From the IMG/VR virus record IMGVR_UViG_2778260996_000004: DNA of 21,068 nt; one strand, given 5' to 3'. Under the pieces are notes generated by a model. It saw only the letters and a program-made list of their open reading frames with translations. It had not been told where the DNA came from and did not search any database. Numbering within the stretch: the stretch's first letter is position 1; each line of letters begins with the position of its first letter. Of this stretch, positions 1-19,545 are shown one piece after another. The translations under genes and the position numbers were made by a program. This DNA is from a virus (taxonomy: Duplodnaviria > Heunggongvirae > Uroviricota > Caudoviricetes).

Positions 1-55
1 GCACCACCCCGTCAGTAGCTGAACAGGAGGGACAGCTGATAGAAACAGAAGCCAC
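1..55 (-). CDS. insA: IS1 InsA, N-terminal fragment (truncated by window edge)
   Basis: Minus-strand translation from GTG (revcomp of 53-55) gives VASVSISCPSCSATDGVV, matching the InsA N-terminus as I recall it. Confidence 0.7.
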   Translation of the reverse strand, partial: MASVSISCPSCSATDGVV

Positions 56-110
56 TGGAGCACCTCAAAAACACCATCATACACTAAATCAGTAAGTTGG
101 CAGCATCACC
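1..110 (-). mobile_element. IS1 insertion sequence, left end (about 110 bp of a 768-bp element; remainder lies upstream of the window)
   Basis: Minus-strand reading of 1-110 is GGTGATGCTGCCAACTTACTGATTTAGTGTATGATGG...CTGACGGGGTGGTGC, which I recognise from memory as the IS1 left terminal inverted repeat plus insA leader (the same segment survives in Tn9/pACYC-type vectors). IR terminus at 110. No search run. Confidence 0.85.
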
Positions 111-121
111 GGGAGGTTATT

Positions 122-739
122 ATGGATAAAAATGTAGAGCATGTATTAGTTGATGCAATTGAAAATAAGCAATCTTTAACAGTCGTTTACTTAGGAGGGA
201 GCCAGCCCGGAACATTAAGGAATATTTCTCCGATTAGTATAAATGGGGATAAGTTGCGGGCAAGATGCCATAGTTCTGGAGCAGTAAAGGTTTTCAATCT
301 TGGGAAAATACAGTTACCCAGTGACTCCTGCGCGGTATCTATGCATTATGGAGATTTAGAAGTTAAAGCTTATGAGACGATGCAGAGCGTAAATGACAAC
401 TTTCATGCCCTTTATCCTGAAGGACGATGGGGTGTTGATTTTAATGAGCATCGCTTTGCTTTATTTGATTTTTTTAAAAACGGGAAACGAAAAAAAACGG
501 CATTTATGGCAATTGAGTTCAGGGAAAGAGATGAAGAGAAAATAATAACAGGTGTAACAATTGATATTGGTATATCTGGAACAGTGATTTCTGAGAAATC
601 CCGAATCCCAAAAAGACGACCATGGGTAGTGGTTGGTCCCGAACACGGAGAATACAGTACTTATTCAACTTTGGACAAGGCTGCTACAGCGTTTTTTGAG
701 AGGCTTTCGTTGATAGCATCCGGCCTGGAAGATAATTGA
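122..739 (+). CDS. hypothetical protein, 205 aa, AT-rich orphan/cargo gene; possible N-terminal SH3-like (WYL-like) beta-barrel; function unknown
   Basis: Intact ORF with GGGAGG (111-116) 5 nt before ATG 122; followed by an intrinsic terminator; composition visibly more AT-rich than the rest of the window (my rough estimate about 40% GC against more than 50% elsewhere). No family recognised. Confidence 0.75.
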   Translation: MDKNVEHVLVDAIENKQSLTVVYLGGSQPGTLRNISPISINGDKLRARCHSSGAVKVFNLGKIQLPSDSCAVSMHYGDLEVKAYETMQSVNDNFHALYPEGRWGVDFNEHRFALFDFFKNGKRKKTAFMAIEFRERDEEKIITGVTIDIGISGTVISEKSRIPKRRPWVVVGPEHGEYSTYSTLDKAATAFFERLSLIASGLEDN

Positions 740-868
740 TTTTATGTTTGGTATTCAGAGTTCGCCGTGCTTAAGAAAGTCAAGATTCTAAAAATACTGA
801 ATGAGCTACTTGTGTTATAACAAAAATGCTATTAGTGTGTTAAGAGTGGTTACTTCGCCACACAACTT

Positions 869-893
869 AAACCCGCCACTGAGCGGGTTTTTT
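869..893 (+). terminator. rho-independent terminator downstream of the 205-aa gene
   Basis: AAA-CCCGC-cactga-GCGGG-TTTTTT: 5-bp GC stem (872-876/883-887), 6-nt loop, T6 tract, A-tract on the 5' side. Confidence 0.6.
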
Positions 894-1369: not shown

Positions 1370-2422
1370 ATGAAAAATACTGTAAAAATAAACAGTGTTG
1401 ATTTAATCAACGCTGATTGCCTGCATTTTATTCAGTCCCTGCCTGATGATTCCATTGACCTGATTGTTACCGATCCGCCGTACTTCAAGGTGAAACCCAA
1501 CGGTTGGGACAATCAGTGGAAAGGGGACGAAGATTACCTTAAGTGGCTGGACCACTGTCTGGCCCAGTTCTGGCGGGTGTTAAAACCTGCCGGAAGCCTT
1601 TATCTGTTCTGTGGGCATCGCCTGGCATCTGATATTGAGATCATGATGCGTGAACGTTTCAACGTGCTTAACCATATCATCTGGGCGAAGCCGTCCGGAC
1701 GTTGGAATGGGTGTAATAAAGAAAGTCTGCGCGCATATTTTCCTGCCACAGAGCGCGTTCTGTTTGCTGAACATTACCAGGGGCCATATCGCGGCAAAAG
1801 TGACGGCTATGCAGCAAAAGAAAGGGAACTCAAACAGCACATAATGGCACCGCTGATATCGTATTTCAGGGATGCTCGTGCCGAACTGGGTATAACGGCA
1901 AAACAAATTGCCGAAGCCACAGGTAAGAAAAATATGGTTTCCCACTGGTTTGGTGCCAGTCAGTGGCAGTTGCCGAATGAGGCTGACTATCGGAAGTTAC
2001 AGGCACTGTTTTCCCGTATAGCGGCAGAGAAGTTTCAGGAACAACAACTGGAACAACCACACCACCAGCTGGTGGCATCTTATGATTCACTGAATCGCAA
2101 ATATTCTGAATTGCTGGATGAGTTTAAATCTCTCCGGCGCTATTTCTCCGTATCAGTCTCCGTGCCTTATACCGATGTCTGGACGCATAAACCCGTTCAG
2201 TTCTACCCGGGTAAACATCCGTGCGAGAAACCGGCGGATATGCTCCGGCAAATAATCAATGCCAGTAGTCGCCCTGGTGATCTGGTTGCTGATTTCTTTA
2301 TGGGATCCGGTTCCACAATAAAAGCAGCAATGGCGCTGGGGCGTCGGGCGTTAGGTGTTGAACTTGAGTCAGAGCGGTTTAATCAGACGGTGAAAGAGGT
2401 AAGTGAACTGGTGGGGAAATAA
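1370..2422 (+). CDS. DNA methyltransferase, beta-class amino-MTase (N6-adenine or N4-cytosine), phage orphan type
   Basis: DPPY motif IV near the N-terminus (LIVTDPPYF) and FxGxG motif I near the C-terminus (DFFMGSGST), the beta-class motif order; 350 aa. Confidence 0.9.
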   Translation: MKNTVKINSVDLINADCLHFIQSLPDDSIDLIVTDPPYFKVKPNGWDNQWKGDEDYLKWLDHCLAQFWRVLKPAGSLYLFCGHRLASDIEIMMRERFNVLNHIIWAKPSGRWNGCNKESLRAYFPATERVLFAEHYQGPYRGKSDGYAAKERELKQHIMAPLISYFRDARAELGITAKQIAEATGKKNMVSHWFGASQWQLPNEADYRKLQALFSRIAAEKFQEQQLEQPHHQLVASYDSLNRKYSELLDEFKSLRRYFSVSVSVPYTDVWTHKPVQFYPGKHPCEKPADMLRQIINASSRPGDLVADFFMGSGSTIKAAMALGRRALGVELESERFNQTVKEVSELVGK

Positions 2423-2429
2423 TTCTGGT

Positions 2430-2455
2430 GGCCACGTTGCGTGGCCTTTTTATTT
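2430..2455 (+). terminator. intrinsic terminator-like hairpin after the methyltransferase
   Basis: GGCCACG-ttg-CGTGGCC (7-bp perfect stem) followed by TTTTTATTT, 8 nt after the MTase stop. Confidence 0.5.
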
Positions 2456-2498
2456 CCAACACAGCACCCGCAAATATCGCGAGGTGAGAGATGACGAA

Positions 2499-2834
2499 AT
2501 GCCTCATAACCCAAATACCTGGCCGGACTGGCTGGAGTTGTTTCAGAGCTGGTGGCGTGGAGACACGCCGCTGGGTGCAGTGATTATGTCGATCGTTATG
2601 GCTGGTTTGCGCATCGCCTATTTTGGCGGTGGTGGTGGCTGGAAGCGAAAAACGCTCGAGATTTTGCTCTGTGGCGCTCTGACGCTGACCTTTGCATCCG
2701 CTCTTGAGTATGTCGGATGGCCTAAATCACTTTCTGTTGCCATTGGTGGCGGTGTGGGGCTGATCGGTGTCGATGCTATTCGTGGGGCTGCAATGCGAGT
2801 AATCGGTAACAAGTTTGGTGGCTCTAAGGAGTAA
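2499..2834 (+). CDS. putative holin, class I topology (three hydrophobic segments), 111 aa
   Basis: Sits directly upstream of the endolysin gene; three hydrophobic/Gly-rich segments and a charged C-terminal tail; GAGGTG upstream of ATG 2499. The ORF track extends it to GTG 2403, but that extension contains the terminator hairpin. Not lambda-S-like in sequence. Confidence 0.6.
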   Translation: MPHNPNTWPDWLELFQSWWRGDTPLGAVIMSIVMAGLRIAYFGGGGGWKRKTLEILLCGALTLTFASALEYVGWPKSLSVAIGGGVGLIGVDAIRGAAMRVIGNKFGGSKE

Positions 2835-2837
2835 TTT

Positions 2838-3314
2838 ATGCAGGTACTAAATTCCCAGCGTAAAGCTTTCCTCGATATGTTGGCGTGGTCAGAAGGAACG
2901 GATAACGGGCGACAGCCAACCCGCAATCACGGCTACGACGTTATTGTAGGTGGTGAGTTATTCACGGATTACTCCGATCATCCTCGCAAACTTGTCACGC
3001 TAAACCCCAAACTCAAATCAACAGCCGCCGGACGTTACCAGCTTCTTTCACGCTGGTGGGATGCTTACCGTAAACAGCTTGGCCTGAAAGATTTTTCTCC
3101 AGAAAGCCAGGACGCTGTAGCTCTGCAGCAGATTAAAGAGCGTGGCGCTTTACCGATGATTGATCGCGGTGATATTCGTCAGGCTATCGACCGTTGCAGC
3201 AATATCTGGGCTTCACTACCGGGCGCTGGTTATGGTCAGTTCGAGCATAAAGTTGACAGCCTGATTGCAAAATTCAAAGAAGCAGGCGGAACGGTCAGAG
3301 AGATTGAGGTATGA
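2838..3314 (+). CDS. R: endolysin, lambda R-type lytic transglycosylase
   Basis: 158 aa, near-identical to lambda R as I recall it ([22 protein letters not shown]...GTVREI.V); AAGGAG RBS at 2826-2831. Confidence 0.95.
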
Positions 3315-3778
3315 GCAGAGTAACCGCGATTATCTCCGCTCTGGTTATTTGTATCATCGCCTGCCTGTCATGGGCTGTTAATCATTACCGTGATAACGCC
3401 ATCGCCTACAAAGAACAGCGTGATAAAAAAGTCAGTGAGCTGAAGCAGGCGACCGCCACCATCGCTGACATGCAGCAGCGTCAGCGTGATGTTGCTGCGA
3501 TCGATGCAAAATACACGAAGGAGTTAGCCGATGCGAAAACTGAAAATGAAACTCTGCGCGCTGATGTTGCCGCTGGTCGTAAGCGCCTGCGGGTCAATGC
3601 CAGTTGCTCCGCAGCCGTGCGTGAAGCCACCGGACCCACCAGCATGGATAATGCAACCAGCCCCCGACTGGCAGACACCGCTGAACGGGATTATTTCACC
3701 CTCAGAGAACGGTTGATGACGATGCAGAAGCAACTGGAAGGGGCGCAGGAATATATCCGCACCCAGCGCATTAAGTAG
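3311..3778 (+). CDS. Rz: i-spanin Rz
   Basis: 155 aa, strongly lambda-Rz-like ([16 protein letters not shown]...); start overlaps the R stop (GTATGA). Confidence 0.9.
3531..3716 (+). CDS. Rz1: o-spanin Rz1 (lipoprotein), embedded in Rz in the +1 frame
   Basis: 61 aa; signal peptide with lipobox-like LVVSAC, proline-rich mature part ([30 protein letters not shown]) matching lambda Rz1; AAGGAG RBS at 3517-3522. Confidence 0.85.
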
Positions 3779-4162
3779 ATGGAGAAAAAACACGAATCTG
3801 TGGTTTTTACTGAGCGCGGTGTACACGGTGGAACATATGGCGGGAAGTTTGTTGCTTATGATTATGCAGCATGGCTAAACCCCGGATTTAAATATGCAGC
3901 CTATAAAGTCCTGGATGACTACTTCACCGGAGAACTTCAGCATCGCAACAGCTTAAGTGCGCAGCTCAATATGAAGTGTCATGAGTTTGATCAGAAAAAA
4001 GATATGGCGAGCTTCTGTGGACAAGGGCTGGCGGCATGGCGCTATACGAAGCCAGTGTTGGTCGCTGAGATTAACTCCCTGGCTAACCAGCTGCAGATAA
4101 CGATCCCCGGGCTGTCCGGTATTTGCCGGTATGAAATTACCGGAAGGCGCGGTCGTTACTGA
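3779..4162 (+). CDS. hypothetical protein, 127 aa, possible KilA-N/APSES-type DNA-binding domain
   Basis: ATG 3779 immediately follows the Rz stop (TAGATG). Motif GTYGGKFVAYDYAAWLNPGFKYAAYKVL resembles the KilA-N pattern from memory; no SD evident. Confidence 0.45.
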   Translation: MEKKHESVVFTERGVHGGTYGGKFVAYDYAAWLNPGFKYAAYKVLDDYFTGELQHRNSLSAQLNMKCHEFDQKKDMASFCGQGLAAWRYTKPVLVAEINSLANQLQITIPGLSGICRYEITGRRGRY

Positions 4163-4419
4163 GTAACAGCAGGCATTACAGCAGCCCTTCACTGAGGGGC
4201 TGCGATAATGTGAGGAATAAAAAACCGGCAGGGGAAATCCATTGAAGATTTGCCGGTGGCAAAAGATGGCCATGCTTTTAACCTTAGTAGCAGAGTTACG
4301 GAGTTCAACAACGACCGTCGCCGTTATCTTGCTGAAAGGCGTTTCAATGATTTTCATCAATTTATTCATCAGCAATGGTGATAATCACTCTCATTTTGGC
4401 GGGTCCTTCCGGTGGGGTG

Positions 4420-4450
4420 GCCTGCCACGGGGCGGGAGCGGCGCGGAAAA
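4420..4450. other. candidate cohesive-end site (cosN-like), with the AT-rich region 4450-4615 as candidate cosB/IHF region
   Basis: ACGGGGCGGGAGCGGCGCGG (4427-4446) shares the ACGGGGCGG core with lambda cosN as I recall it; lies about 170 bp upstream of the terminase small-subunit start and is followed by a strongly AT-rich stretch. Confidence 0.35.
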
Positions 4451-4615
4451 AGGCTAGTTTTTGAAATTTCATTCGTCATCACCACTACTGTAATGCATTG
4501 ATATTGCATTAGTTTTATTTTTATGGTGTCGATTTTGATTGTTTTTTGTTCATCACTAACACCGTTTGCCTAAAGTTGTTCGCAAGATGCATGTTTAAAA
4601 CATTCTGGAGCGGGT

Positions 4616-5110
4616 ATGGATCAAGAGTTAAAAAATCTGACGCTGAATATCAGTCAACTGGCGGCACTGTCAGGTGTACATCGCCAGACTGCTGCGGCAA
4701 GGCTGCAAAATCTACCCGTTGCAGGGGGGCATGAAAGCAACCTCAAGCTTTATCGGGTGGTTGATATTGTGTCGGCATTTCTGGCATTACCACCGCCGGT
4801 TGCAGAAGGCGAAATGGACGCGCATGAGCGCAAAGCCTGGTATCAGTCTGAACGTGAGCGTCTTAAGTTCGAACAGGAAACGGCACAACTCATTCCGGCC
4901 AGTGATGTCAGACGGGAGTTTGCCATCTGGGCAAAAGCGGTCGTGCAGGTACTGGAGACATTACCGGATATTCTGGAACGTGACTGCGGTCTGCAGCCTG
5001 CCGCTGTGAGCCGTGTTCAGTCCATTATTGATGATCTGCGCGATCAGATAGCCCTGCGGGTGACCGAAGCAGGTGCGGATGATGAGGAGGAATTACAGCA
5101 GGAGGAGTAA
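4616..5110 (+). CDS. terminase small subunit
   Basis: 164 aa; position immediately upstream of and overlapping the large terminase (TAATG); N-terminal HTH-like segment (LTLNISQLAALSGVHRQTAAARL); acidic C-terminus. Confidence 0.7.
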   Translation: MDQELKNLTLNISQLAALSGVHRQTAAARLQNLPVAGGHESNLKLYRVVDIVSAFLALPPPVAEGEMDAHERKAWYQSERERLKFEQETAQLIPASDVRREFAIWAKAVVQVLETLPDILERDCGLQPAAVSRVQSIIDDLRDQIALRVTEAGADDEEELQQEE

Positions 5111-7212
5111 TGCTGAATCAGGAAACCGCAAAGGCAGCACGAACCGATTCAGGTTATATCCTTCGCGCACCGAGACGAATGCGGGTTGCTGATGCCGTTG
5201 CTCAGTATATGCGGGTGCCCATGGGGGCAGGGAACTCAGTCCCGTGGGATCCGCTGGTGGCACCGTATGTTATTGAGCCGATGAACTGCCTGGCCTCGCG
5301 TGAATACGACGCAGTGATATTTGTTGGTCCGGCACGAACCGGCAAGACTATCGGCCTGATTGACGGCTGGGTGATTTACAACGTGATTTGCGATCCTGCG
5401 GATATGCTGATCATTCAGATGACGGAGGAAAAAGCCCGCGAACACTCCAAAAAACGACTTGCCAGAACGTTTCGCGTCAGCCCGGAAGTGGTCAGTCGCC
5501 TGAGTCCGAACAAAAATGACAACAACGTTTATGACAGAACATTCCTTGCTGGCAACTACCTGAAAATCGGCTGGCCGTCAGTCAATATCATGTCCTCATC
5601 AGATTATAAATGCGTGGCGCTGACGGATTATGACCGTTTTCCGGAAGATATTGATGGCGAGGGGGATGCCTTCTCTCTTGCCTCAAAACGTACCACCACA
5701 TTTATGTCCAGTGGTATGACGCTGGTGGAGAGTTCCCCCGGCAGGGATGTGAAGGATGTGAAATGGCGACGGACTTCACCGCATGAGGCTCCACCAACCA
5801 CGGGGATACTGTCACTCTATAACCGTGGCGATCGACGTCGCTGGTACTGGCCCTGCCCACACTGTGGTGAGTATTTTCAGCCCTGCGGCGATGTGGTTGC
5901 TGGTTTCCGTGATATTGCCGATCCTGTGCTGGCAAGTGAGGCGGCTTATATTCAGTGTCCTTCCTGTTCAGGACGGATTATGCCTGAACAAAAACGTGAG
6001 CTGAACGGACGTGGGGTCTGGTTGCGGGATGGTGAATCCATCAATGCGGATGGCAGTCGTTATGGTGATCCCCGACGCTCACGTATTGCGTCATTCTGGA
6101 TGGAGGGTCCGGCAGCTGCTTACCAGACACTCTCGCAACTCGTTTACAAACTGCTTACTGCAGAACAGGAATACGAGACAACCGGAAGTGAAGAAACACT
6201 CAAGACGGTTATCAATACCGACTGGGGATTACCTTATCTTCCCCGTGCCAGCATGGAGCAACGAAAAAGTGAACTGCTTGAGCAGCGGGCAGAGCCAGTT
6301 CCTTCCCGCAGTGTGCCGGATGGCGTTAATTTCCTGGTGGCGACAGTTGATGTGCAGGCGGGACGTCATCGCCGTTTTGTGGTTCAGGTAACGGGCTATG
6401 GCAGCCGTGGCGAACGCTGGATTATTGATCGTTACAACATCACGCAGTCATTGCGCGGTGACAGCGACGGGGAGAGCCAGCGAATTGATCCGGCCAGCTA
6501 TCCGGAAGACTGGGATGTCCTGCTGACGGATGTTTTTCATAAAAGCTGGCCGCTGGCCTCCGATCCTTCTCAACAAATGCGACTGATGGCAATGGCGGTG
6601 GATTCCGGCGGTGAAGACGGGGTCACTGATAATGCCTATAAATTCTGGCGTCGTTGCCGTCGTGATGGCCTTGGTAAACGTATTTACTTGTTTAAGGGCG
6701 ACAGCATCCGGCGCGCAAAACTGATCACCCGTACATTCCCTGATAACACCGGACGAACGGGCCGACGGGCGCAGGCCGCAGGTGATGTGCCGCTCTGGCT
6801 TCTTCAGACGGATGCCCTGAAAGACCGGGTGAATAACGCGTTATGGCGTGACTCTCCAGGTCCCGGCTATGTGCATTTCCCTGACTGGCTGGGGAGCTGG
6901 TTTTACGACGAACTGACGTATGAAGAGCGGAGCAGTGACGGGAAATGGAGTAAGCCGGGTCGCGGTGCCAACGAAGCTTTTGACCTGATGGTGTATGCCG
7001 AGGCTCTGGTCATTCTGCATGGATACGAAAAGATCCGCTGGCCGGATGCACCGGAATGGGCGAGCCGGGAAACCTGGCTGGAGTGTGTCCCGGACAGTAC
7101 CAAACCGTCACCCTCACCGGAACCGGTATCCACGCCTGTTAAAAAACAAAAACGGAAGAAAACAGTAACTGACGATGTTAACCCCTGGCTGACTTCCGGA
7201 GGATGGTTATGA
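5110..7212 (+). CDS. terminase large subunit, GpA family
   Basis: 700 aa; Walker-A-like GPARTGKT; Cys motifs CPHCGEYF...CPSC; position between small terminase and portal. Confidence 0.9.
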   Translation: MLNQETAKAARTDSGYILRAPRRMRVADAVAQYMRVPMGAGNSVPWDPLVAPYVIEPMNCLASREYDAVIFVGPARTGKTIGLIDGWVIYNVICDPADMLIIQMTEEKAREHSKKRLARTFRVSPEVVSRLSPNKNDNNVYDRTFLAGNYLKIGWPSVNIMSSSDYKCVALTDYDRFPEDIDGEGDAFSLASKRTTTFMSSGMTLVESSPGRDVKDVKWRRTSPHEAPPTTGILSLYNRGDRRRWYWPCPHCGEYFQPCGDVVAGFRDIADPVLASEAAYIQCPSCSGRIMPEQKRELNGRGVWLRDGESINADGSRYGDPRRSRIASFWMEGPAAAYQTLSQLVYKLLTAEQEYETTGSEETLKTVINTDWGLPYLPRASMEQRKSELLEQRAEPVPSRSVPDGVNFLVATVDVQAGRHRRFVVQVTGYGSRGERWIIDRYNITQSLRGDSDGESQRIDPASYPEDWDVLLTDVFHKSWPLASDPSQQMRLMAMAVDSGGEDGVTDNAYKFWRRCRRDGLGKRIYLFKGDSIRRAKLITRTFPDNTGRTGRRAQAAGDVPLWLLQTDALKDRVNNALWRDSPGPGYVHFPDWLGSWFYDELTYEERSSDGKWSKPGRGANEAFDLMVYAEALVILHGYEKIRWPDAPEWASRETWLECVPDSTKPSPSPEPVSTPVKKQKRKKTVTDDVNPWLTSGGWL

Positions 7213-7421
7213 ACCAGAATGATATCGAAGCCATGATTCAGCGTTATACGGAAGCTGAAATGGCGGTGCTGGACGGAAAATCCGTCACCTTTAATGGTCA
7301 GCAGATGACCATGGAAAACTTATCTGAGATCCGGCAGGGACGGCAGGAGTGGGAGCGCCGCCTTGCGGCTCTGATTACACGACGACGGGGGCATCCCGGG
7401 TACCGGCTGGCGAGGTTCTGA
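7209..7421 (+). CDS. head-tail joining protein, gpW-like
   Basis: 70 aa from ATG 7209 (GGAGG at 7198-7202, 6-nt spacer); C-terminal RRRGHPGY resembles the lambda W C-terminus; start overlaps the terminase stop, stop overlaps the portal start (TGATG). Confidence 0.6.
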   Translation: MNQNDIEAMIQRYTEAEMAVLDGKSVTFNGQQMTMENLSEIRQGRQEWERRLAALITRRRGHPGYRLARF

Positions 7422-8929
7422 TGGCAATTCTTGATGATGTGATTGGCGTTTTTTCACCAGGATGGAAAGCGGCAAGGCTGCGTTCCCGTGCGGTGATCCA
7501 GGCTTATGAGGCCGTAAAAACGACGCGGACACACAAAGCCCGGCGGGAAAACCGAACTGCCGACCAGTTAAGCCAGTACGGGGCCGTGTCGTTACGTGAG
7601 CAGGCCCGTTACCTTGATAACAACCACGATCTGGTTATTGGTGTATTTGACAAGCTGGAAGAACGGGTGGTGGGGAAAAACGGGATTATTGTCGAGCCAC
7701 ATCCGGTATTACGCAATGGGGCCATTGCCCGTGATCTGGCAGCGGAGATACGCACCCGATGGAGTGAATGGTCTGTCAGCCCGGAAGTCACCGGGCAGTT
7801 TACCCGTCCGATGCTGGAACGTCTGATGTTGCGTACCTGGCTGCGCGATGGTGAGGTGTTTGCCCAGATGGTTTCCGGGCGCATAAACAACCTGACGCCT
7901 TCTGCCGGTGTTCATTTCTGGCTGGAGGCGCTCGAGCCAGACTTTATTCCCATGACCAGTGATGAGAGCAACAGGCTGAATCAGGGCGTGTTTGTTGATG
8001 ACTGGGGGCGTCCCGAAAAATATCTGGTGTATAAAAGTCGTCCCGTATCCTGGCGGCAGATGGAAACCAAAGAAGTGGATGCAGAGCGAATGCTGCATCT
8101 TAAATTTGTTCGCCGTCTGCACCAGATGCGCGGGACGTCTTTGTTGTCCGGTGTGCTGATCCGCCTCAGTGCCCTGAAAGAGTATGAAGATTCTGAGCTG
8201 ACTGCAGCAAGGGTCGCCGCTGCTCTGGGGATGTACATCCGGAAAGGCGACGGGCAGAGCTATGAACCGGATGGTAATGGCAGCAAGGAGAATGAACGCG
8301 AGCTTACCATTCAGCCAGGCATTATTTACGACGATCTGAAACCCGGCGAAGAAATCGGAATGGTGAAGTCGGATCGTCCCAATCCTAACCTTGAAACTTT
8401 TCGTAATGGTCAGTTGCGTGCCGTGGCGGCGGGCAGTCGTCTGAGTTTTTCCAGTACGGCACGCAACTATAACGGCACTTACAGCGCCCAGCGTCAGGAG
8501 CTGGTTGAATCCACAGATGGCTACCTGATCCTGCAGGACTGGTTTATTGGTGCCGTCACCCGCCCGATGTATCGTGCCTGGCTGAAACAGGCTGTGGCAT
8601 CCGGTGTTATCAGGCTACCCCGCGATCTTGACCGTTCTTCACTGTATACCGCGGTGTATTCCGGACCGGTGATGCCGTGGATTGACCCTGTTAAGGAGGC
8701 TGAGGCCTGGAAAATCCAGATTCGTGGTGGAGCGGCGACAGAATCAGACTGGGTACGTGCTGGTGGTCGTAATCCGGATGATGTCAAACGTCGGCGCAAG
8801 GCCGAAATTGATGAAAACCGCAAGCTGGATCTGGTATTTGATACCGATCCGGCCAGTGATAAAGGAGGCAGCAGTGCCGCAACGAAACGACAGGAGCCGC
8901 AGCACACCGACGACCAGTCCGAAGAATAA
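7421..8929 (+). CDS. portal protein
   Basis: 502 aa from ATG 7421; position after terminase and W; size and layout typical of lambda-family portals. Confidence 0.85.
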   Translation: MAILDDVIGVFSPGWKAARLRSRAVIQAYEAVKTTRTHKARRENRTADQLSQYGAVSLREQARYLDNNHDLVIGVFDKLEERVVGKNGIIVEPHPVLRNGAIARDLAAEIRTRWSEWSVSPEVTGQFTRPMLERLMLRTWLRDGEVFAQMVSGRINNLTPSAGVHFWLEALEPDFIPMTSDESNRLNQGVFVDDWGRPEKYLVYKSRPVSWRQMETKEVDAERMLHLKFVRRLHQMRGTSLLSGVLIRLSALKEYEDSELTAARVAAALGMYIRKGDGQSYEPDGNGSKENERELTIQPGIIYDDLKPGEEIGMVKSDRPNPNLETFRNGQLRAVAAGSRLSFSSTARNYNGTYSAQRQELVESTDGYLILQDWFIGAVTRPMYRAWLKQAVASGVIRLPRDLDRSSLYTAVYSGPVMPWIDPVKEAEAWKIQIRGGAATESDWVRAGGRNPDDVKRRRKAEIDENRKLDLVFDTDPASDKGGSSAATKRQEPQHTDDQSEE

Positions 8930-10901
8930 TTCTTGGTTCAGGATGCAGGCTGGTCACCAGAGTGACGCGGATATTTATATTTATGACGAGATTGGTTTCT
9001 GGGGTGTTACAGCGAAGCAGTTTATCAGTGATCTGAATGCACTGGGCGATATCACCCACATTAATCTCCATATCAATTCACCGGGTGGCGATGTCTTTGA
9101 AGGCATCGCCATTTTTAATGCACTGAAAACACATGGTGCGTCCATTACCGTTTATGTCGACGGTGTGGCGGCGTCAATGGCGTCGGTCATTGCGATGGTG
9201 GGAAACCCGGTCATTATGCCGGAAAACACCTTCATGATGATTCATAAACCATTTGGCTTTACGGGCGGTGATGCGGAGGACATGCGCACCTATGCCGACC
9301 TGCTCGATAAGGTTGAGGCGGTTCTGTTACCCGCTTATGCACAGAAAACCGGGAAAACCACCGATGAAATTGCTGCCATGCTGGCGGATGAGACCTGGAT
9401 GTCCGGTGCCGAATGTCTGGCACATGGATTTGCTGATCAGGTGACGCCAGCCGTTAAGGCAATGGCATGTATTCAGTCAAAACGTACAGAGGAATTTAAA
9501 AAGATGCCGGAATCCATTCGAAACATGATTACTCCGCCACGCAACAGTGCTCCACGCGTACAGGATGATGAACCTGCAGCCTCCCGGACGCCAGTGCAGG
9601 CAGCAGCACCCGTGGTGGATGAAAACAGCATCCGTGCGCAGGTACTGGCAGAGCAAAAAGCGCGTGTAAACGGTATTAATGATCTGTTTGCCATGTTTGG
9701 CGGGCGTTATCAGACGCTGCAGGCTCAGTGTCTTGCCGATCCTGAATGTTCGCTGGAGCAGGCCCGCGAAAAGCTGTTGAACGAGATGGGGCGCGAGTCC
9801 ACGCCATCCAATAAAAATACCCCGGCTCATATTTATGCCGGTAACGGTAATTTTGTGGGGGACGGGATTCGCCAGGCGCTGATGGCGCGTGCCGGATTTG
9901 AAAAAACCGAACGTGATAATGTCTACAACGGGATGACCCTGCGTGAATATGCCCGTATGTCACTGACTGAACGGGGTATTGGGATTTCCAGTTATAACCC
10001 GATGCAGATGGTCGGTGCGGCGTTCACACACAGTACGTCTGACTTCGGTAATATTCTGCTGGATGTTGCGAACAAAGCCATTCTGCAGGGCTGGGAAGAT
10101 GCCCCTGAAACCTATGAACAGTGGACGCGGAAAGGTCAGTTGTCTGATTTTAAAATTGCCCATCGTGTGGGTATGGGGGGCTTCAGTGCTCTGCGTCAGG
10201 TGCGTGAAGGGGCGGAATATAAATACGTCACCACCGGAGATAAACAGGCCACTATTGCACTGGCGACCTATGGCGAGCTGTTCAGTATCACCCGTCAGGC
10301 CATTATCAATGATGATCTGAATATGCTGACCGATGTCCCGATGAAGCTGGGCCGTGCGGCGAAATCCACTATTGCCGATCTGGTTTATGCCATTCTGACG
10401 TCTAACCCGAAAATCTCCACAGATAATGTAAGTCTGTTCGATAAAGCGAAACATGCAAACGTACTGGAGAGCGCTGCAATGGACGTGGCATCGCTGGATA
10501 AAGCCCGCCAGTTGATGCGCGTTCAGAAAGAGGGGGAGCGTCATCTGAATATTCGTCCTGCGTTCGTACTGGTACCGACGGCGATGGAGTCTGTTGCTAA
10601 CCAGGTCATTCGCTCCTCAAGTGTCAAGGGGGCTGACATTAACGCCGGTATTATTAACCCGGTGAAAGATTTTGCGACCGTTATTGCAGAGCCTCGTCTT
10701 GATGATAACAGCCAGACCACCTTCTACCTGGCTGCGTCAAAAGGCTCCGATACGATTGAAGTGGCTTATCTCAACGGTGTGGATACGCCATATATTGATC
10801 AGATGGAGGGCTTCAGTGTGGATGGCGTGACAACGAAAGTGCGTATTGACGCCGGTGTCGCGCCAGTTGATCACCGCGGTCTGGTGAAATGTACGGCGTA
10901 A
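8874..10901 (+). CDS. prohead protease (ClpP/S14-type) - scaffold-like linker - major capsid protein fusion
   Basis: N-terminal ClpP-like region (IYIYDEIGFWG...INSPGGDV...MASVIAMVG), then a long C-terminal domain in the major-capsid position. Start ambiguous: GTG 8874 has a strong SD (AAAGGAGG 8861-8868) but overlaps the portal 3' end; ATG 8943 lacks an SD. Confidence 0.8.
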   Translation: MPQRNDRSRSTPTTSPKNNSWFRMQAGHQSDADIYIYDEIGFWGVTAKQFISDLNALGDITHINLHINSPGGDVFEGIAIFNALKTHGASITVYVDGVAASMASVIAMVGNPVIMPENTFMMIHKPFGFTGGDAEDMRTYADLLDKVEAVLLPAYAQKTGKTTDEIAAMLADETWMSGAECLAHGFADQVTPAVKAMACIQSKRTEEFKKMPESIRNMITPPRNSAPRVQDDEPAASRTPVQAAAPVVDENSIRAQVLAEQKARVNGINDLFAMFGGRYQTLQAQCLADPECSLEQAREKLLNEMGRESTPSNKNTPAHIYAGNGNFVGDGIRQALMARAGFEKTERDNVYNGMTLREYARMSLTERGIGISSYNPMQMVGAAFTHSTSDFGNILLDVANKAILQGWEDAPETYEQWTRKGQLSDFKIAHRVGMGGFSALRQVREGAEYKYVTTGDKQATIALATYGELFSITRQAIINDDLNMLTDVPMKLGRAAKSTIADLVYAILTSNPKISTDNVSLFDKAKHANVLESAAMDVASLDKARQLMRVQKEGERHLNIRPAFVLVPTAMESVANQVIRSSSVKGADINAGIINPVKDFATVIAEPRLDDNSQTTFYLAASKGSDTIEVAYLNGVDTPYIDQMEGFSVDGVTTKVRIDAGVAPVDHRGLVKCTA

Positions 10902-10924
10902 ACGTCGCAGACAACAACTCTGAT

Positions 10925-10944
10925 GGCCCGTAAGGGCTTTTTTT
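10925..10944 (+). terminator. weak intrinsic terminator/attenuator after the capsid gene
   Basis: GCCC-gtaa-GGGC stem followed by T7 tract, 25 nt after the capsid stop. Confidence 0.4.
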
Positions 10945-10987
10945 GTACCTGAAATCAGCCCCTGAACGGGGCTGTGCGGAGACAGTT

Positions 10988-11311
10988 ATGGCAAAGAATT
11001 TTGTAGAAGAAGGAAAAACGGTGGCGATTGTTGCCAGTGCAGCCATCAGCAGCGGAGACCTGGTGCAGGTGGGTGATGTTTTTGCGGTGGCGCTGACCGA
11101 TATTCCACAGGGTGAAACAGGCGACGGCCTGACCGAAGGTGTGTTTATGCTGCCTAAGCTGAAAACGGATGACATGAAAACGGGTAAGAAGGTTTATCTG
11201 AAGTCCGGAAAAGTTCAGCTGACTAACAGCGGCTCTGATCCGCTGGTCGGGGTTGTCTGGGCAGATGCCGGAACCAGTGCAGAAGAAGTGCCGGTAAAAC
11301 TCAATGTCTGA
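10988..11311 (+). CDS. small head-associated protein (107 aa), possibly DUF2190-like
   Basis: GGAG upstream of ATG 10988; position directly after the major capsid gene; Gly/Val-rich. Family assignment is from memory and weak. Confidence 0.5.
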   Translation: MAKNFVEEGKTVAIVASAAISSGDLVQVGDVFAVALTDIPQGETGDGLTEGVFMLPKLKTDDMKTGKKVYLKSGKVQLTNSGSDPLVGVVWADAGTSAEEVPVKLNV

Positions 11312-11579
11312 TCCCTTTTCCCGGCTGGCAGCGCGTATGGATGCGATCACGGTCAGAAAGATGGGAAAGACAGCCTCGATTAATGATGTCGATATGACTG
11401 TGATCCCGGGAGAAACACTGGCAGAGCTGAATGCTCTGTCCGGACCTGCGGTCTCTCTGGTGGTGTTTTCTTCGGGATACCGCCCACGGCGCGGGGATCG
11501 CGTTGTTTATGACGGACAACATTGGACGGTCACACGGCATGAACGCTTTAACGGTAAGCCAATGATCTTTATTGAGTAA
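11304..11579 (+). CDS. head-tail connector, FII-like
   Basis: 91 aa; sits where FII sits in lambda (before Z); RRGD motif similar to lambda FII; start overlaps the upstream stop (ATGTCTGA). Confidence 0.55.
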   Translation: MSDPFSRLAARMDAITVRKMGKTASINDVDMTVIPGETLAELNALSGPAVSLVVFSSGYRPRRGDRVVYDGQHWTVTRHERFNGKPMIFIE

Positions 11580-11590
11580 AGAGGTGTGGG

Positions 11591-12181
11591 ATGAAGGGGC
11601 TTGAGAATGCCATCCGCAATCTGAACAGCCTTGATACCCGTATGGTGCCACAGGCCAGCGCATGGGCGATAAACCGTGTGGCACAGAAAGCGGTCTCGGT
11701 TGCCACCCGGCAGGTTGCCGGGAATACCGTTGCGGGAGATAACCAGGTGAAAGGGATCCCCCTGAAACTGGTACGTCAGCGTGTCCGGGTGTTTAAAGCC
11801 AGTCCGTCAGGAAAAATGACGGCCAGGATCCGCGTTAACCGGGGCAATCTGCCCGCCATCAAACTGAACACAACACGGCGGCGTGCTGGTGAAGGACTGA
11901 GAGTGGGAAAATACTTTTTCCGGGGGGCATTTGTTCAGCAACTGGCGAATGGCCGCTGGCATGTTCTGAGGCGTCTTCCTGAAGCGCGTTTTGCAACAGG
12001 GCATGACTATCAGGGCAGGCCAAGGAAAAATCGTCTTCCTGTGGAGGTAGTGAAAATCCCGCTGTCCGGACCGCTGACACAGGCATTTGAAGATGCCCGC
12101 GACCGCATCATTGCTGCGGAAATGCCGAAACAGCTGGGGTATGTACTGAAACAACAACTGAGATTATGGCTGACCCGATGA
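11591..12181 (+). CDS. Z: minor tail protein Z (tail completion)
   Basis: 196 aa; clear similarity to lambda Z (MKGLE.A..NL...AINRVA...NGRWHV..R......EVVKIP...PL..AF...LG.L.QQLR). Confidence 0.9.
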   Translation: MKGLENAIRNLNSLDTRMVPQASAWAINRVAQKAVSVATRQVAGNTVAGDNQVKGIPLKLVRQRVRVFKASPSGKMTARIRVNRGNLPAIKLNTTRRRAGEGLRVGKYFFRGAFVQQLANGRWHVLRRLPEARFATGHDYQGRPRKNRLPVEVVKIPLSGPLTQAFEDARDRIIAAEMPKQLGYVLKQQLRLWLTR

Positions 12182-12579
12182 ACCGACATACACAAATCCG
12201 CCAGGTCGTACTGGCACGCCTTCGGGAACAGTGTGGAGACAGCGCCACGTTTTTTGACGGGCTTCCGGCATTTATTGATGCGCAGGAACTGCCTGCCGTG
12301 GCGGTGTGGCTGAGTGATGCTCAGTACACCGGAAAAATGACGGATGAAGATGACTGGCAGGCTGTTCTGCATATTGCCGTCTTCATCCGGGCACAGGCAC
12401 CGGATTCAGAGCTGGATATGTGGATGGAGAGCACCATTTTCCCGGCTCTGAATGATGTACCGGCACTTTCCGGACTCATCGACACCCTGATCCCACTCGG
12501 TTTTAACTATCAACGTGATAATGAGATGGCCACCTGGGCGATGGCGGAAATCACGTACCAGATCACGTACACGAATTAA
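12166..12579 (+). CDS. U: tail terminator protein U
   Basis: 137 aa; similarity to lambda U (ATFFDG.PA...FPAVAV.L..A.YTG...PDSELD.WMES.I.P..PALS.LI...TY.ITY); overlaps the Z stop. Confidence 0.9.
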   Translation: MADPMNRHTQIRQVVLARLREQCGDSATFFDGLPAFIDAQELPAVAVWLSDAQYTGKMTDEDDWQAVLHIAVFIRAQAPDSELDMWMESTIFPALNDVPALSGLIDTLIPLGFNYQRDNEMATWAMAEITYQITYTN

Positions 12580-12589
12580 GGAGGTGGTA

Positions 12590-13333
12590 ATGACCACACC
12601 AAATCCACTGGCAAAGACGAAAGGTGCGGGGACGACGTTCTGGATGTATACCGGCAACGGCGATGCGTTTGCGAATCCTCTGTCGGACACTGACTGGCTG
12701 CGTCTTGCGATGGTGAAGGATCTGCAACCTGGCGAAATGACCGCTGATGCAGAAGATGACACTTATCTCGATGATGAAGATGCAGACTGGAAAACGACAA
12801 CCCAGGGGCAGAAATCCGTCGGTGATACTTCGGCGACGCTGGCCTGGCGTCCGGGTGACAGCGGGCAGAAAAAACTGGTTCAGTTGTTCGACTCCGGTGA
12901 AGTCTGCGCGTTTCGTATCAAATATCCCAACGGCACTGTTGATGTTTTCCGTGGCTGGCTGAGTTCACTGGGTAAAACCATTGCCTCAAAAGACGTGATG
13001 ACCCGCACCGTGAAAATCAGCGGTGTGGGGCGTCCATATCTGGCAGAGGAGGGCACTCAAACTGTGGGCGTTACCGGGCTGACGGTGGCACCGGCATCCG
13101 CCAGTGTCAATGTGGGAGCAACCACCACGCTGACCTTTACAGTAAAACCTGACGGAGCCAGTGACAAAGCGATCAGTGTGCATTCGACAGATCCACAGAC
13201 TGCCACGGTGACCCTGAACGGGCTTGTGGCCACGGTGAAAGGCGTGAAGCAGGGCAGTGTCAGCATTGTGGGCATGACTTCTGACGGCGATTTTGTGGCA
13301 GTGGCTACGGTGACTGTCAGCGCCGCAGGTTAA
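12590..13333 (+). CDS. V: major tail protein V with C-terminal Ig-like (Big_2-type) domain
   Basis: 247 aa from ATG 12590 (AAGGAGG RBS); strong similarity to lambda V (KGAGTT.W.Y.G.GD..ANPLSD.DW.RLA.VKDL.PGE...NGTVDVFRGW). Confidence 0.9.
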   Translation: MTTPNPLAKTKGAGTTFWMYTGNGDAFANPLSDTDWLRLAMVKDLQPGEMTADAEDDTYLDDEDADWKTTTQGQKSVGDTSATLAWRPGDSGQKKLVQLFDSGEVCAFRIKYPNGTVDVFRGWLSSLGKTIASKDVMTRTVKISGVGRPYLAEEGTQTVGVTGLTVAPASASVNVGATTTLTFTVKPDGASDKAISVHSTDPQTATVTLNGLVATVKGVKQGSVSIVGMTSDGDFVAVATVTVSAAG

Positions 13334-13354
13334 CAGGACGATACTCATCATTTG

Positions 13355-13377
13355 CCCCGGTTATCCGGGGCTTTTTT
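13355..13377 (+). terminator. intrinsic terminator-like hairpin between V and G
   Basis: CCCCGG-ttat-CCGGGG followed by CTTTTTT. Confidence 0.45.
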
Positions 13378-13390
13378 GCAGGTGGAGAAC

Positions 13391-13780
13391 ATGATGTTTC
13401 TGAAACAGGGCACGTTTAATTATGAAAAGCAGTCCGTGGTGCTCAGTGAGCTGTCCGGGCTGCAGAGAATTGAATATCTGGCGTTTGTTCAGCAGCGAAC
13501 GGCAAAGTTTGATGCCGAAGAGGGAGAACTGCCGGAGGCTGAACGACAGATTGCTTTTCTGCGGATGGGGATGGATATCAATGCCTGGCTGGTTTCCCGC
13601 TCACTGTGGAATGCGGAACAGTCTCAGGATGTTGAGACGCTTTGCGCATCCGTAATTACAACATGGTCGTATGATGCCCTGGGTGCGGGGGCGGAGATGG
13701 TTCTGTCGCTGAGCGGTATGGGAGCCATTGAGAATGCCGGGGATTTGGAGCATGAGGTGCTGACGCCGGAAAAGTCCTGA
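13391..13780 (+). CDS. G: tail assembly chaperone G
   Basis: 129 aa from ATG 13391; similarity to lambda G (MFLK...LSELS.LQRIE.LA). Confidence 0.8.
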   Translation: MMFLKQGTFNYEKQSVVLSELSGLQRIEYLAFVQQRTAKFDAEEGELPEAERQIAFLRMGMDINAWLVSRSLWNAEQSQDVETLCASVITTWSYDALGAGAEMVLSLSGMGAIENAGDLEHEVLTPEKS

Positions 13781-14118
13781 CGCGGGAAATGCAGTTTGTC
13801 ATGCGGCTTGCCCGGGAGTTCCGGCGGGCAGACTGGCGGCGGATGCTGTCGGAAATGTCGGCCACTGAGCTTGGGGAGTGGGGCGATTATTTCCGGATGC
13901 AGAGCTTCAGTGATGTGTGGATGGATGCGCAGTTTGCCTCGCTGAAGGCATTGATCGTGAGAATGGTGTCCGGCAGCAGTGATGCTGCGGTGGCTGATTT
14001 CAGCCTTTTACCGGAAGAGAACGGGATACCGGAGCGAACGGACGAAGAACTGATGCATCTTGGGGAAGGTATTTCCGGAGGTGTGCGTTATGGACCAGAT
14101 AGCCAACCTGGTCATTGA
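13756..14118 (+). CDS. T: T-frame segment of tail assembly chaperone G-T, reached by programmed -1 frameshift from G
   Basis: The -1 frame relative to G is open from 13756 to 14118 and overlaps the last 8 codons of G; A-rich candidate slip site CCG GAA AAG at 13766-13774; conserved G/GT architecture of siphovirus tails. Confidence 0.65.
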   Translation, partial: GADAGKVLTREMQFVMRLAREFRRADWRRMLSEMSATELGEWGDYFRMQSFSDVWMDAQFASLKALIVRMVSGSSDAAVADFSLLPEENGIPERTDEELMHLGEGISGGVRYGPDSQPGH

Positions 14119-17100
14119 TTTGGGGATTGATGCGGCAGAGTTTAAAAATGAAATTCCCCGTATCAAAAACCTTCTGAATGGTGCAGCCAGCGATGCAGAA
14201 CGGTCTTCTGCCCGTATGCAGCGTTTTATGGAGCGTCAGACTCAGGCCGCCCGGCAGACAACGCAGGCGGCTTCTTCGGCTGCAACAGCCGCATCCGTCC
14301 ATGCGCAGACGGTGGAGAAGAACGCACAGGCTCATGAACGCATGGCCCGCGAGGTGGAGAAAACCCGCCAGCGCATGGAGGCGCTGAGCCAGAAAATGCG
14401 CGAGGAACAGGCGCAGGCCATGGCTCTGGCGGAGGCTCAGGATAAAGCGGCTGCTGCGTTTTATCGTCAGATTGACAGTGTGAAACAGGCCAGTGCGGGG
14501 CTGCAGGAATTACAGCGTATTCAGCAGCAGATCCGACAGGCCAGAAACAGTGGCGGGATTGGTCAGCAGGATTATCTGGCGCTGATTTCTGAGGTTACGG
14601 CGAAAACCCGTGTTCTTACACAGGCTGAGGAAGAGGCTACCCGACAGAAAGTGGCGTTTATCCGTCAGCTTAAAGAGCAGGCAACCCGCCAGAATCTTTC
14701 TTCTTCTGAGTTGCTTCGTGCTAAGGCTGCCCAGCTGGGGGTAAGCAGTGCTGCAGAAGTGTATATCCGCAAAATGGAGCAGGCAGGAAAAGCCACGCAT
14801 TCGCTGGGTCTGAAAAGTGCAGCGGCCCGTCAGGAGATAGGCGTTCTGATAGGTGAACTGGCCCGCGGAAATTTAGGTGCGCTGAGGGGATCCGGAATAA
14901 CGCTGGCTAACCGTGCCGGGTGGATAGACACATTGATGTCACCGAAAGGCATGATGCTGGGCGGGGTTATTGGCGGTATTGCCGCGGCCGTCTATGGTCT
15001 GGGTAAAGCCTGGTATGACGGTCAGAAGGAGGGGGAAGAATTTAACCGCCAGCTGTCACTGACGGGGCATTATGCCGGAGTCACTGCCGGGCAGCTGTGG
15101 ACGCTCAGTCGTGCTATTTCCGGGAATGGTATCACGCAACATGCTGCAGCCGGTGCGCTGGCTCAGGTGGTGGGGAGTGGTGCATTTCGTGGAAACGATA
15201 TCGGTATGGTGGCGAGAGCTGCCGCAAAGATGGAGCGATCGGTTGGCCAGTCGGTCAGCGATACCATAAATCAGTTTAAGCGGCTGAAGGATGATCCTGT
15301 AAATGCCGCGAAGGCTCTGGACAATGAGCTGCATTTTCTTACTGCCACTCAGCTTGAGCAGATACGCGTCCTTGGGGATCAGGGGCGGTCCAGTGATGCG
15401 GCACGGATAGCCATGTCTGCACTGGCAGAGGAAACCGGTCGGCGTACTGCGGATATTGATAATAACCTCAATGCGCTGGGCAGTACGCTGAAGTATCTGT
15501 CTGATTTATGGAGTCGTTTCTGGGATGCGGCCATGAATATTGGTCGTGAAGACTCGCTGGATGAACAGATTGCCGCTTTACAGGAGAAAGTGTCGCGGGC
15601 GAAAAGACTCCCCTGGACGGCATCATCTTCTCAGGTTGAATACGATCAGCAGCGTCTTAACGATCTTCAGGAGAAAAAACGCCAGAAGGATTTGCAGGAT
15701 GCAAAAGAGCAGGCAGAGCGGAATTATCAGGAGCAACAGAAACGCCGTAATGCTGAAAATGCTGCACTGAACCGGATGAATGAAACGGAAGCAGCACGAC
15801 ATCAGCGTGAAATTGCGCGTATTAATGCCATGCAGTACGCCGATCAGGCTGTCAGGGATGCGGCGATACAACGTGAAAATGAACGTTACGAGAAAGCCAT
15901 TAAGAAAAAAACATCTGAAAACCGCAATGATGAAGCCACCCGGTTGCTGTTGCAGTACAGTCAGCAGCAGGCGCAGGTGGAGGGGCAGATCGCCGCCGCC
16001 AGACAGTCCGCGGGACTGACCACGGAAAAAATGACAGAGGCGCATAAGCAGCTTCTGGCCCTGCAGCAGCGTATCAGTGACCTGGCGGGTAAAAAGCTGA
16101 CAGCAGATGAAAAAAGCGTGCTGGCGCATAAGGATGAGCTGATTCAGGCACTGACGCTGCTGGATGCAAAACAGCAGGAGCTGCAGAAGCAGACGGCGCT
16201 GAATGACCTGAAGAAAAAATCCATTCAGCTTGCCAGCCAGCTGGCGGAAGAGGAACGGGCTCTGCGTCAGCAACATGACCTGGATATCGCCACAACAGGA
16301 ATGGGAGATAAGCAGCGTCAGCGGTACCAGACACAGTTCAGCCTGCAGCAAAAATATCAGCAGCAGATGGAGCAACTGGAGCGTGACAGTAAACAGAAAG
16401 GAACATACGGCACAGATGAATACCGGAATGCTGAGCAGATGCTGACAGACAGCCTTAACCGGCAACTGAACGAAAACAGACGCTACTGGCAGGAACAGGA
16501 ACTGATGCAGGCAGACTGGAAAAACGGTGCCATGCGGGCGTTTCAGAATTTTACAGAGAGTGCGGATAACGCAGCAGGTACCGCTGAGCAGATGTTTACA
16601 GCGGCATTTAACAGTGCAGGTAATGCACTGGCGACGTTCTGTACCACCGGAAAACTGAACTTCAGATCTTTTACCGCCTCGCTCCTTTCTGATCTGGCAA
16701 AAATCATGTCGCAGATGGTCATGATGCAGGCAGTGAAGGGGATTGGTTCGGCGTTTGGCTGGGGGAGTGCAGCAGCTGCCAGTGTGACACCAAATGCGGA
16801 TGGCGGTGTTTATCAGTCTGCTGATTTGAGTCGCTACAGTGGCACGGTGGTTAACCGTCCGACGTTTTTTGCTTTTGCAAAAGGCGCGGGTGTGATGGGG
16901 GAAGCTGGACCTGAAGCCATTCTGCCACTGCGTCGTGGTGCTGACGGTAAGCTGGGGGTTGTGGCGGATATTGGTGGTTCAGGTATGGCGATGTTTGCCC
17001 CGCAGTACAACATCGAGATCAATAACGATGGCACGAACGGGCAGATAGGTCCGGCTGCCCTGAAGGTGGTTTATGACCTTGGGAAAAAAGCGGCAGCGGA

Positions 17101-17484: not shown

Positions 17485-17493
17485 GAGGCTCTG

Positions 17494-18192: not shown

Positions 18193-18196
18193 TCCC

Positions 18197-19485: not shown

Positions 19486-19502
19486 TGCAAAATGTTTTAT
19501 GT

Positions 19503-19530
19503 GAAACCGCCTGCGGGCGGTTTTGTCGTT
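19503..19530 (+). terminator. terminator-like hairpin between I and J
   Basis: CCGCC-tgc-GGGCGG followed by TTTTGTCGTTT. Confidence 0.4.
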
Positions 19531-19545
19531 TATGGAGCGTGAGGA

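Follow-up and report, generated by a model that had tools for sequence, protein, structure and literature searches.

A gene of deviant base composition lies next to the lysis genes of a lambdoid prophage, and the question raised by this locus is what such a gene encodes and what it does for the element that carries it. It was found near the start of a stretch of 21,068 nucleotides of viral DNA (IMG/VR record IMGVR_UViG_2778260996_000004, Caudoviricetes), which was analyzed as a whole and is called the window here. Apart from the gene, the window corresponds to the late region of a lambdoid siphovirus prophage. Downstream of the gene are found coding regions for an N6/N4 DNA methyltransferase, an S-type holin, an endolysin, an Rz spanin, and the small and large terminase subunits, and after these the genes for portal, head protease/major head, tape measure, and minor tail proteins. 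In the initial annotation, which was derived from the sequence alone, the gene was described as an orphan with a candidate accessory or defense function.

The gene and its protein family

The ATG open reading frame comprises positions 122 to 739 on the plus strand with the stop codon at 737-739, and its translation into 205 amino acids is identical to the sequence quoted in the initial annotation. A GGGAGG motif is located 5 nt upstream of the ATG. The GC content of the gene is 39.5% (GC3 31.6%) compared to 53.9% in the region 1370..21068, which confirms the claim of a composition unlike that of the prophage. Only 1.5% of the 618-nt segments of the window are as GC-poor as the gene, and every one of these overlaps it, i.e. 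the gene is the AT-richest stretch of the window. The encoded soluble two-domain protein has a mass of 23 kDa and a pI of 6.6, is near neutral overall, and lacks a transmembrane segment.

The view that the protein belongs to no family had to be abandoned. Its entire length aligns to PHROG 8498 (E 3e-126) and a part of it to PHROG 31886, and some copies carry the PGAP label 'WYL domain-containing protein'. In an exhaustive HMMER profile search, 954 representatives were found with E <= 1e-3, among them 191 with E <= 1e-30, each representative standing for a cluster at 50% identity (~950 clusters); a word-indexed search returned nine relatives only. Nearly all representatives are standalone proteins of 187-210 amino acids with a constant architecture of ~195 residues that has the WYL helix at its start, and those with a name are all annotated as 'hypothetical'. 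Members were present in 2 of 50,697 sequenced phage genomes. Residue conservation and Pfam counts given below refer to 133 family members, and related loci were searched with an alignment of 5 sequences.

Fusions are rare. They comprise an N-terminal transmembrane helix with a coiled coil, a C-terminal zinc ribbon with a transmembrane segment, an N-terminal BRCT domain, or 160-180 residues of unknown sequence, and a search of PADLOC with the fused variants gave nothing system-specific. A BRCT fusion of 288 amino acids is encoded by the Enterobacter soli plasmid pENTAS02, a P2-like phage-plasmid (L006, 4725-5591), flanked by an integrase on one side and by an HTH regulator with a membrane protein on the other. 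For the BRCT part of this fusion, there is also a match at the C-terminus of PDC-S48, a PADLOC candidate.

The N-terminal WYL domain

Recent work has identified WYL domains as the sensors of ssDNA by which BREX, CBASS, and DNA-damage responses are activated. To our knowledge, every characterized WYL domain binds single-stranded nucleic acid, and all characterized WYL sensors known to us are coupled to a DNA-binding or enzymatic output.

Codons 1-66 (122..319) very likely encode a WYL domain (PF13280). The AF2 model of the protein (mean pLDDT 86) contains an N-terminal helix, beginning at residue 3, followed by an Sm/SH3-like five-stranded barrel. The Pfam WYL model scores 16.5 bits with the window protein (E 0.0085), which is below the gathering cutoff of 21.8, and matches 47 of the 133 family members at E <= 0.01 with a best value of 4.8e-08. 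When the family profile was compared to the PDB, the WYL domain of DriD was found at E 1.2e-4, followed by BrxR and CapW, and hhalign aligned the WYL domain alone to BrxR with a probability of 82%. A fold search among the viral models of BFVD retrieved small beta-barrels and unnamed proteins only. A loose resemblance of this part to WYL/SH3-like domains had been suggested from its sequence pattern, together with a fold comparison on a predicted structure as the way to examine it. Pfam, the PDB profile match, hhalign, and the model, with its Sm/SH3-like barrel and the matches to the WYL domains of DriD, BrxR, and CapW, bear out this guess.

The Trp-Tyr-Leu tripeptide is absent; the central strand reads K44-L-R-A-R48-C with L-R-A in place of WYL. 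In accepted members of the domain family this motif is degenerate, too, as exemplified by RWHVR in CapW and BrxR (PMC11662680). Conserved in this part of the protein are the loop YxGGSQPGxxRxIxP, the strand K-[VL]-R-A-R-C, and the residues K56, F58, and K62. The conserved residues align to the RT-loop serines, the RWHVR strand, and the 3-10-helix arginine of BrxR, and S27, R33, K44, R46, R48, K56, and K62 are the counterparts of pocket-lining residues in DriD, CapW, and BrxR. Among the 133 members, R33 and K56 are invariant, K/R62 is found in 132, S27 in 123, R/K48 in 101, R46 in 92, and K/R44 in 90. In CapW, ssDNA is contacted by the serine of the RT loop, by the 3-10-helix arginine, and by arginines that flank the WYL strand (PMC11662680); the equivalent pocket residues of BrxR bind sulphate (PMC9122601). 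The ligand of the WYL domain probably is a nucleic acid. It would be single stranded, and ssDNA originating from phage replication, restriction, or DNA damage appears to be the most likely candidate.

The C-terminal domain

The two domains are connected by a linker (codons 67-85, 320..376) with pLDDT values of 39-55 and variable alignment columns. The C-terminal domain (codons 86-205 plus stop, 377..739) displays a family-specific alpha-beta3-[variable acidic loop, aa 134-165]-beta2-alpha fold without a match to any known family. Its near-invariant motifs are GW, FKNGKxxK, and RPWxV, accompanied by A187 and F191. The initial annotation characterized the C-terminal half as basic, which applies to two conserved motifs only, since the net charge of this half is ~-1. 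The statement that it has no catalytic motif was substantiated by the conservation analysis and the Pfam scan: no catalytic constellation is conserved among the 133 members and no effector domain was recognizable.

An HTH domain was found neither in the window protein, by means of Pfam, NCBIfam, PADLOC, and the model, nor in the 133 family members. The C-terminal domain was also compared to the WCX/C-terminal domain of BrxR-type regulators, and no homology was detectable. In a forced global alignment 'GWxV...LxxFKNG' was placed opposite to 'RLWNV...LALKNP' of BrxR, but this apparent resemblance was not significant in comparison to shuffled controls. The C-terminal domain may represent an output or partner-binding module that relays the signal via protein-protein contacts or oligomerization. 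Possibly, it also contributes to the crevice for the ligand, a role taken by WCX in the regulators.

A variable cargo slot downstream of Q

Where E. coli prophages are uninterrupted, 75 bp separate the start of the gene from an upstream Q antiterminator gene coding for 124 amino acids. The gene is followed by ~270 bp of non-coding sequence, an ORF of 67 codons, the same methyltransferase gene as in the window, and the lysis genes. In phages that lack the gene, homology to the window sets in again at position 821/822, 832, or 870 in the individual phages. The gene-less relatives compared include mEp460, Ayreon, and Stx2c phages, in which homology begins at the terminator described below. Between Q and the resumed homology, Ayreon carries an ORF of 141 codons, PhiR40_1 a minus-strand ORF of 148 codons, and cdtI two minus-strand ORFs. 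In Stx2c-converting phages the slot presumably contains the stx2c genes, judged from the phage name, as no features were listed under this match. The occurrence of unrelated cargo at this place in other phages indicates that the position is a real cargo hotspot, with Q as its left border and a conserved terminator, the 67-codon ORF, and the methyltransferase gene as its right border. The moron position between the regulatory side and the lysis genes that had been proposed for the gene is thus corroborated by its post-Q site, the variable slot, and the deviant GC content.

An AT-rich 3' tail specific to the cargo (740..821, plus strand; 33.6% GC from 740 to 870) follows the gene. The intrinsic terminator AAACCCGC-cactga-GCGGGTTT, followed by TTT (869..893, plus strand), is located 130 nt past the stop codon of the gene and is supported by its fold, by homology to the phage backbone, and by the record of Ayreon, in which a terminator is annotated at the equivalent place. 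It had been interpreted as the gene's own terminator. However, it starts the conserved backbone common to gene-less phages and hence bounds the slot rather than belonging to the gene.

The gene is present in 74 of 5,426 complete E. coli genomes and is always chromosomal. It occurs as two discrete alleles, one with 52 copies of >=99% nucleotide identity and another with 22 copies at ~78%. Between the two alleles dN/dS is 0.22 overall, 0.13 for the WYL domain, 0.24 for the C-terminal domain, and 0.79 for the linker; both domains are under purifying selection. Consensus scans detected no sigma-70-like promoter upstream of the gene on the plus strand, neither in the window nor in the native loci. 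A late promoter or qut site was not found by comparison to PhiR40_1 and cdtI, whose Q alleles are too diverged to be aligned past the Q stop codon, and none of the sequenced phages has the Q allele of the native loci. Since no promoter was located, the timing of transcription of the gene is inferred.

Several further features of the window were recorded. On the minus strand, positions 861-997 matched the Rfam model of STnc130, an enterobacterial sRNA, but below threshold (30.1 bits, gathering threshold 55). This match overlaps the backbone terminator region and is also found in the native locus L001. Nothing above the Rfam threshold and no tRNAs were identified in the window or the native locus. 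The ORF at 992-1219 (1016-1219 in another annotation; 67-75 codons) belongs to PHROG 331 with weak hints to a MarR/Ren-like HTH. Together with the methyltransferase gene it forms a backbone pair common to mEp460, cdtI, Ayreon, and Stx2c phages. The methyltransferase of 350 amino acids (1370-2422) contains a large insertion, as its match to a Pfam profile of 221 positions is spread over residues 29-341. A terminator-like hairpin is situated at 2430-2446, just past the methyltransferase stop codon. The holin ORF of 143 codons (2403-2834) begins with a GTG inside the end of the methyltransferase gene; its true start is probably internal because the Pfam holin match is confined to residues 35-137. 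An ORF of 127 codons (3779-4162), flanked by the genes for Rz and the small terminase subunit, matches Rha-like regulator families (PHROG 10441 and 129). The region ~4350-4650 is low in GC (~41%), contains no convincing ORF, and is possibly a cos region or a small cargo slot. Finally, a minus-strand ORF of 272 codons (20146-20964) amid the plus-strand tail genes has no PHROG match at E <= 1e-5 and may be spurious or another cargo gene.

A hairpin at the ribosome binding site and its disruption by IS1

In the native loci the 5' UTR contains the inverted repeat AACCTCCTGATGA-N7-TCAT(C/T)GGGAGGTT, which forms a 13-bp stem pairing the entire Shine-Dalgarno sequence. This UTR folds with -26.1 kcal/mol (z -5.4), and no shuffled sequence folded equally well. 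In the 78%-identical allele the stem is kept (-19.4 kcal/mol, z -3.5) despite the diverged surrounding UTR. A strong ribosome binding site of its own had been put forward as a sign of the gene's autonomy. The GGGAGG is indeed present, but the argument fails, as in the native loci the site is sequestered in the hairpin. The native hairpin is followed by UUAUUAU and could act as an attenuator as well.

In the window this structure is lost (-5.9 kcal/mol, z +1.2). Positions 1..110 are the end of an IS1 element on the minus strand, identical (100%) to thousands of annotated IS1 copies, which was overlooked in the initial annotation. A query including this end matched E. coli genomes at >74,000 places, whereas the similarity to native loci does not begin before 106/111. 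Position 1 of the window already lies within the IS element, whose inverted-repeat end abuts the Shine-Dalgarno sequence of the gene. As an alignment to uninterrupted loci shows, IS1 has taken the place of the part of the native 5' UTR next to Q, together with the 5' arm of the hairpin, and cuts the gene off from Q. Positions 111..121 (Shine-Dalgarno GGGAGG at 111-116 plus spacer) represent the 3' arm of the native hairpin, which is unpaired here. A second, independent IS1 insertion was found in the hairpin loop of another prophage (L033, IMGVR_UViG_2563366940_000006, ~7960-8000), there with the other IS end and only a few bases from the IS1 junction of the window. Both insertions part Q from the late genes and remove the stem sequestering the Shine-Dalgarno sequence. 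They could reflect a preference for AT-rich targets, selection to cripple the late operon of the prophage, or derepression of the gene.

For one Q allele, its 3' two-thirds plus the intergenic region were detected in 52 genomes, which is the count of the gene allele with >=99% identity, and for 5 of 5 accessions seen in both listings, Q allele and gene allele coincide. These matching counts and accessions indicate that the gene forms one mosaic module with the hairpin and the C-terminal part of Q. In the native locus L001 this module is located at 6570-7016 and meets the window at 111. With all other Q alleles, similarity is limited to the first ~135-160 nt, so that the mosaic junction lies inside Q. 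The locus is a compact model of cargo-gene control, with a hairpin hiding the ribosome binding site, a link to one Q allele, and two independent disruptions by IS1.

Genomic neighborhoods of homologues

Temperate phages keep exclusion genes that are expressed in the lysogen, such as rexAB of lambda, after cI and between the genes of repressor and integrase. The family gene is found directly behind a short CI-type repressor gene, in the same orientation as the latter and divergent from cro-like/replication genes, in five temperate phages that are unrelated to each other (L066, L067, L074/75, L076, L082). An integrase gene adjoins the family gene in L006, L007, L081, and L082. The gene order in L076 (5639-9363) is CI-like HTH (112 aa), WYL-family protein (292 aa), RexA, and integrase. 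RexA was identified by PADLOC (1.9e-59), RexB is absent, and the family member (P0127), a distant, membrane-anchored protein with a coiled coil, is found in place of the membrane partner of RexA. This is the single locus in which the family is associated with RexA. RexA is absent from the window and the native E. coli loci, and the ORF downstream of the family member of L081 is not RexA-like.

In Leucothrix (L009) the family gene is located beside NsnA/PD-T4-2-like, HEPN, and NERD genes, and in L078 near PIN, Fic, and GNAT genes. Other copies are found beside Rha or after tail genes, and one in a cyanophage of 209 kb. About one third of the sampled contexts are uninformative chromosomal neighborhoods, and across ~25 contexts neither a conserved neighbor or partner gene nor an adjoining regulated operon was found. 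PADLOC-DB 2.0 contained no system-specific model matching the window protein but only generic CRISPR-associated WYL models (E 0.0014 and 0.0066). A count of homologues and an inspection of their surroundings had been suggested as a check of the proposed defense function. The count gave 954 representatives, and the contexts of homologues beside defense genes, at the rexAB position, or next to RexA are consistent with such a function; the uninformative third of the contexts and the missing PADLOC system model count against it.

Possible functions

We tentatively favor the possibility that the gene product is a prophage-encoded superinfection-exclusion or defense factor. This reading is ranked first because of the rexAB-like placement of homologues, the operon with RexA, the neighboring defense genes, and the restrained translation. 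The protein would act in the conflict between mobile elements, of one phage with another or with its host, with the hairpin keeping its translation low. Against an exclusion role count the location of the E. coli copy after Q, which is a late position and not part of the lysogeny module, and the lack of both a recognizable effector domain and a system-specific PADLOC match. The association with RexA in a single locus, the uninformative third of the sampled contexts, the failure to locate a promoter, the WYL score of the window protein below the Pfam threshold, and the missing W-Y-L tripeptide also speak against this reading.

Alternatively, the protein might serve the phage as an anti-defense decoy. 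An HTH-less WYL protein could soak up the short ssDNA alarm fragments of CapW, BrxR, and other ssDNA-activated regulators, or form dead-end complexes with these, so that defense operons stay off during induction or infection. CapW has been reported to be triggered by induction of a lambda prophage and to limit virion production through CBASS (PMC11662680), which makes this idea attractive as the window copy follows Q, a position consistent with expression in the lytic phase. The WYL pocket resembles that of CapW, BrxR, and DriD without their DNA-binding output domain, and the homologue in the 209-kb cyanophage would also fit. Yet we regard a decoy as unlikely. Many homologues are co-transcribed with the CI repressor gene and would be made in the quiescent lysogen, and a stoichiometric sponge needs abundance whereas the hairpin sequestering the Shine-Dalgarno sequence argues for low translation. 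Membrane-anchored variants and the operon with RexA fit defense better, no homology to WCX was found that would support heterodimerization with host regulators, and members are present in only 2 of the 50,697 sequenced phages.

A role in the lysis-lysogeny decision appears improbable as well. Here the protein would sense ssDNA as a sign of DNA damage and act on the phage repressor or on RecA-ssDNA filaments to tune induction, similar to a non-proteolytic ImmA-type anti-repressor or a PsiB-like RecA modulator. The gene order CI-X-Int indeed mirrors ImmR-ImmA-Int, but no protease or other catalytic motif is conserved, and the likeness to PsiB is that of a generic alpha/beta sandwich, for which frataxin scores higher. 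Furthermore, a position downstream of Q and far from the immunity region, as in E. coli, would be odd for a sensor of induction, and members are also found outside prophages.

That the gene is a decayed fragment of a wHTH-WYL-WCX regulator or a spurious, functionless AT-rich ORF, as might be suspected from the Pfam WYL score below threshold, the lack of an HTH in the window protein, and the separation of the window copy from its native upstream region by IS1, can be dismissed as highly improbable in view of the 954 representatives sharing the ~195-residue architecture from the WYL helix onwards, the near-invariant motifs of the C-terminal domain itself, dN/dS values of 0.13-0.24 in both domains, the confident AF2 model, and the lack of homology to the C-terminal domain of BrxR; family size, conservation, and dN/dS led us to reject both variants.

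In a wider and rather doubtful interpretation, the family would constitute a new class of phage-encoded output-less WYL sensors that read or intercept the ssDNA alarm of infected or damaged cells. They would be either the first viral decoy for the ssDNA signal of CapW/BrxR or a one-protein exclusion module with a novel C-terminal effector able to replace RexB beside RexA, and their translation would be gated by a hairpin at the ribosome binding site that co-evolves with a dedicated Q allele. Once known, the function should reveal how prophages use, or blunt, the danger signal of their hosts, and it will assign a role to a new protein domain.

Comparison with known systems

WYL proteins as such are already known. 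The phage-borne form without HTH and enzyme but with a conserved novel C-terminal domain is undescribed in the literature searched, which contained nothing on the PHROG 8498 family or on a phage WYL protein of this composition. With ~950 clusters the family combines a sensor with an unknown conserved domain, mainly in temperate phages at positions of exclusion genes.

The regulators CapW (CBASS), BrxR (BREX), DriD, and PafBC share a wHTH-WYL-WCX organization. In contrast, the window protein starts at the WYL helix and lacks the winged HTH, the linker, and the three-helix bundle; its C-terminal domain has no detectable homology to the WCX domain of BrxR type, and no regulated operon adjoins the gene. 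WYL1 is an accessory protein with an RHH DNA-binding domain that works together with Cas13d. From WYL1 and from WYL domains fused to helicases or nucleases the phage family differs in having neither a CRISPR association nor a fused enzyme. With lambda RexAB, several homologues in temperate phages share the position after CI, and the member in L076 shares an operon with a RexA homologue. However, the family bears no likeness to RexA or RexB in sequence or fold, and the window copy is located after Q instead of cI and has no RexA neighbor.

A parallel in location is offered by the lambdoid morons between Q and the lysis genes, such as stx and the cargo of cdtI and Ayreon; the window gene occupies the same variable slot and is of deviant base composition. 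The proteins of these morons are unrelated to the one described here. What sets the window gene apart from these morons is a terminator that belongs to the shared backbone, the lack of a detectable promoter of its own, and its genetic linkage to one Q allele.
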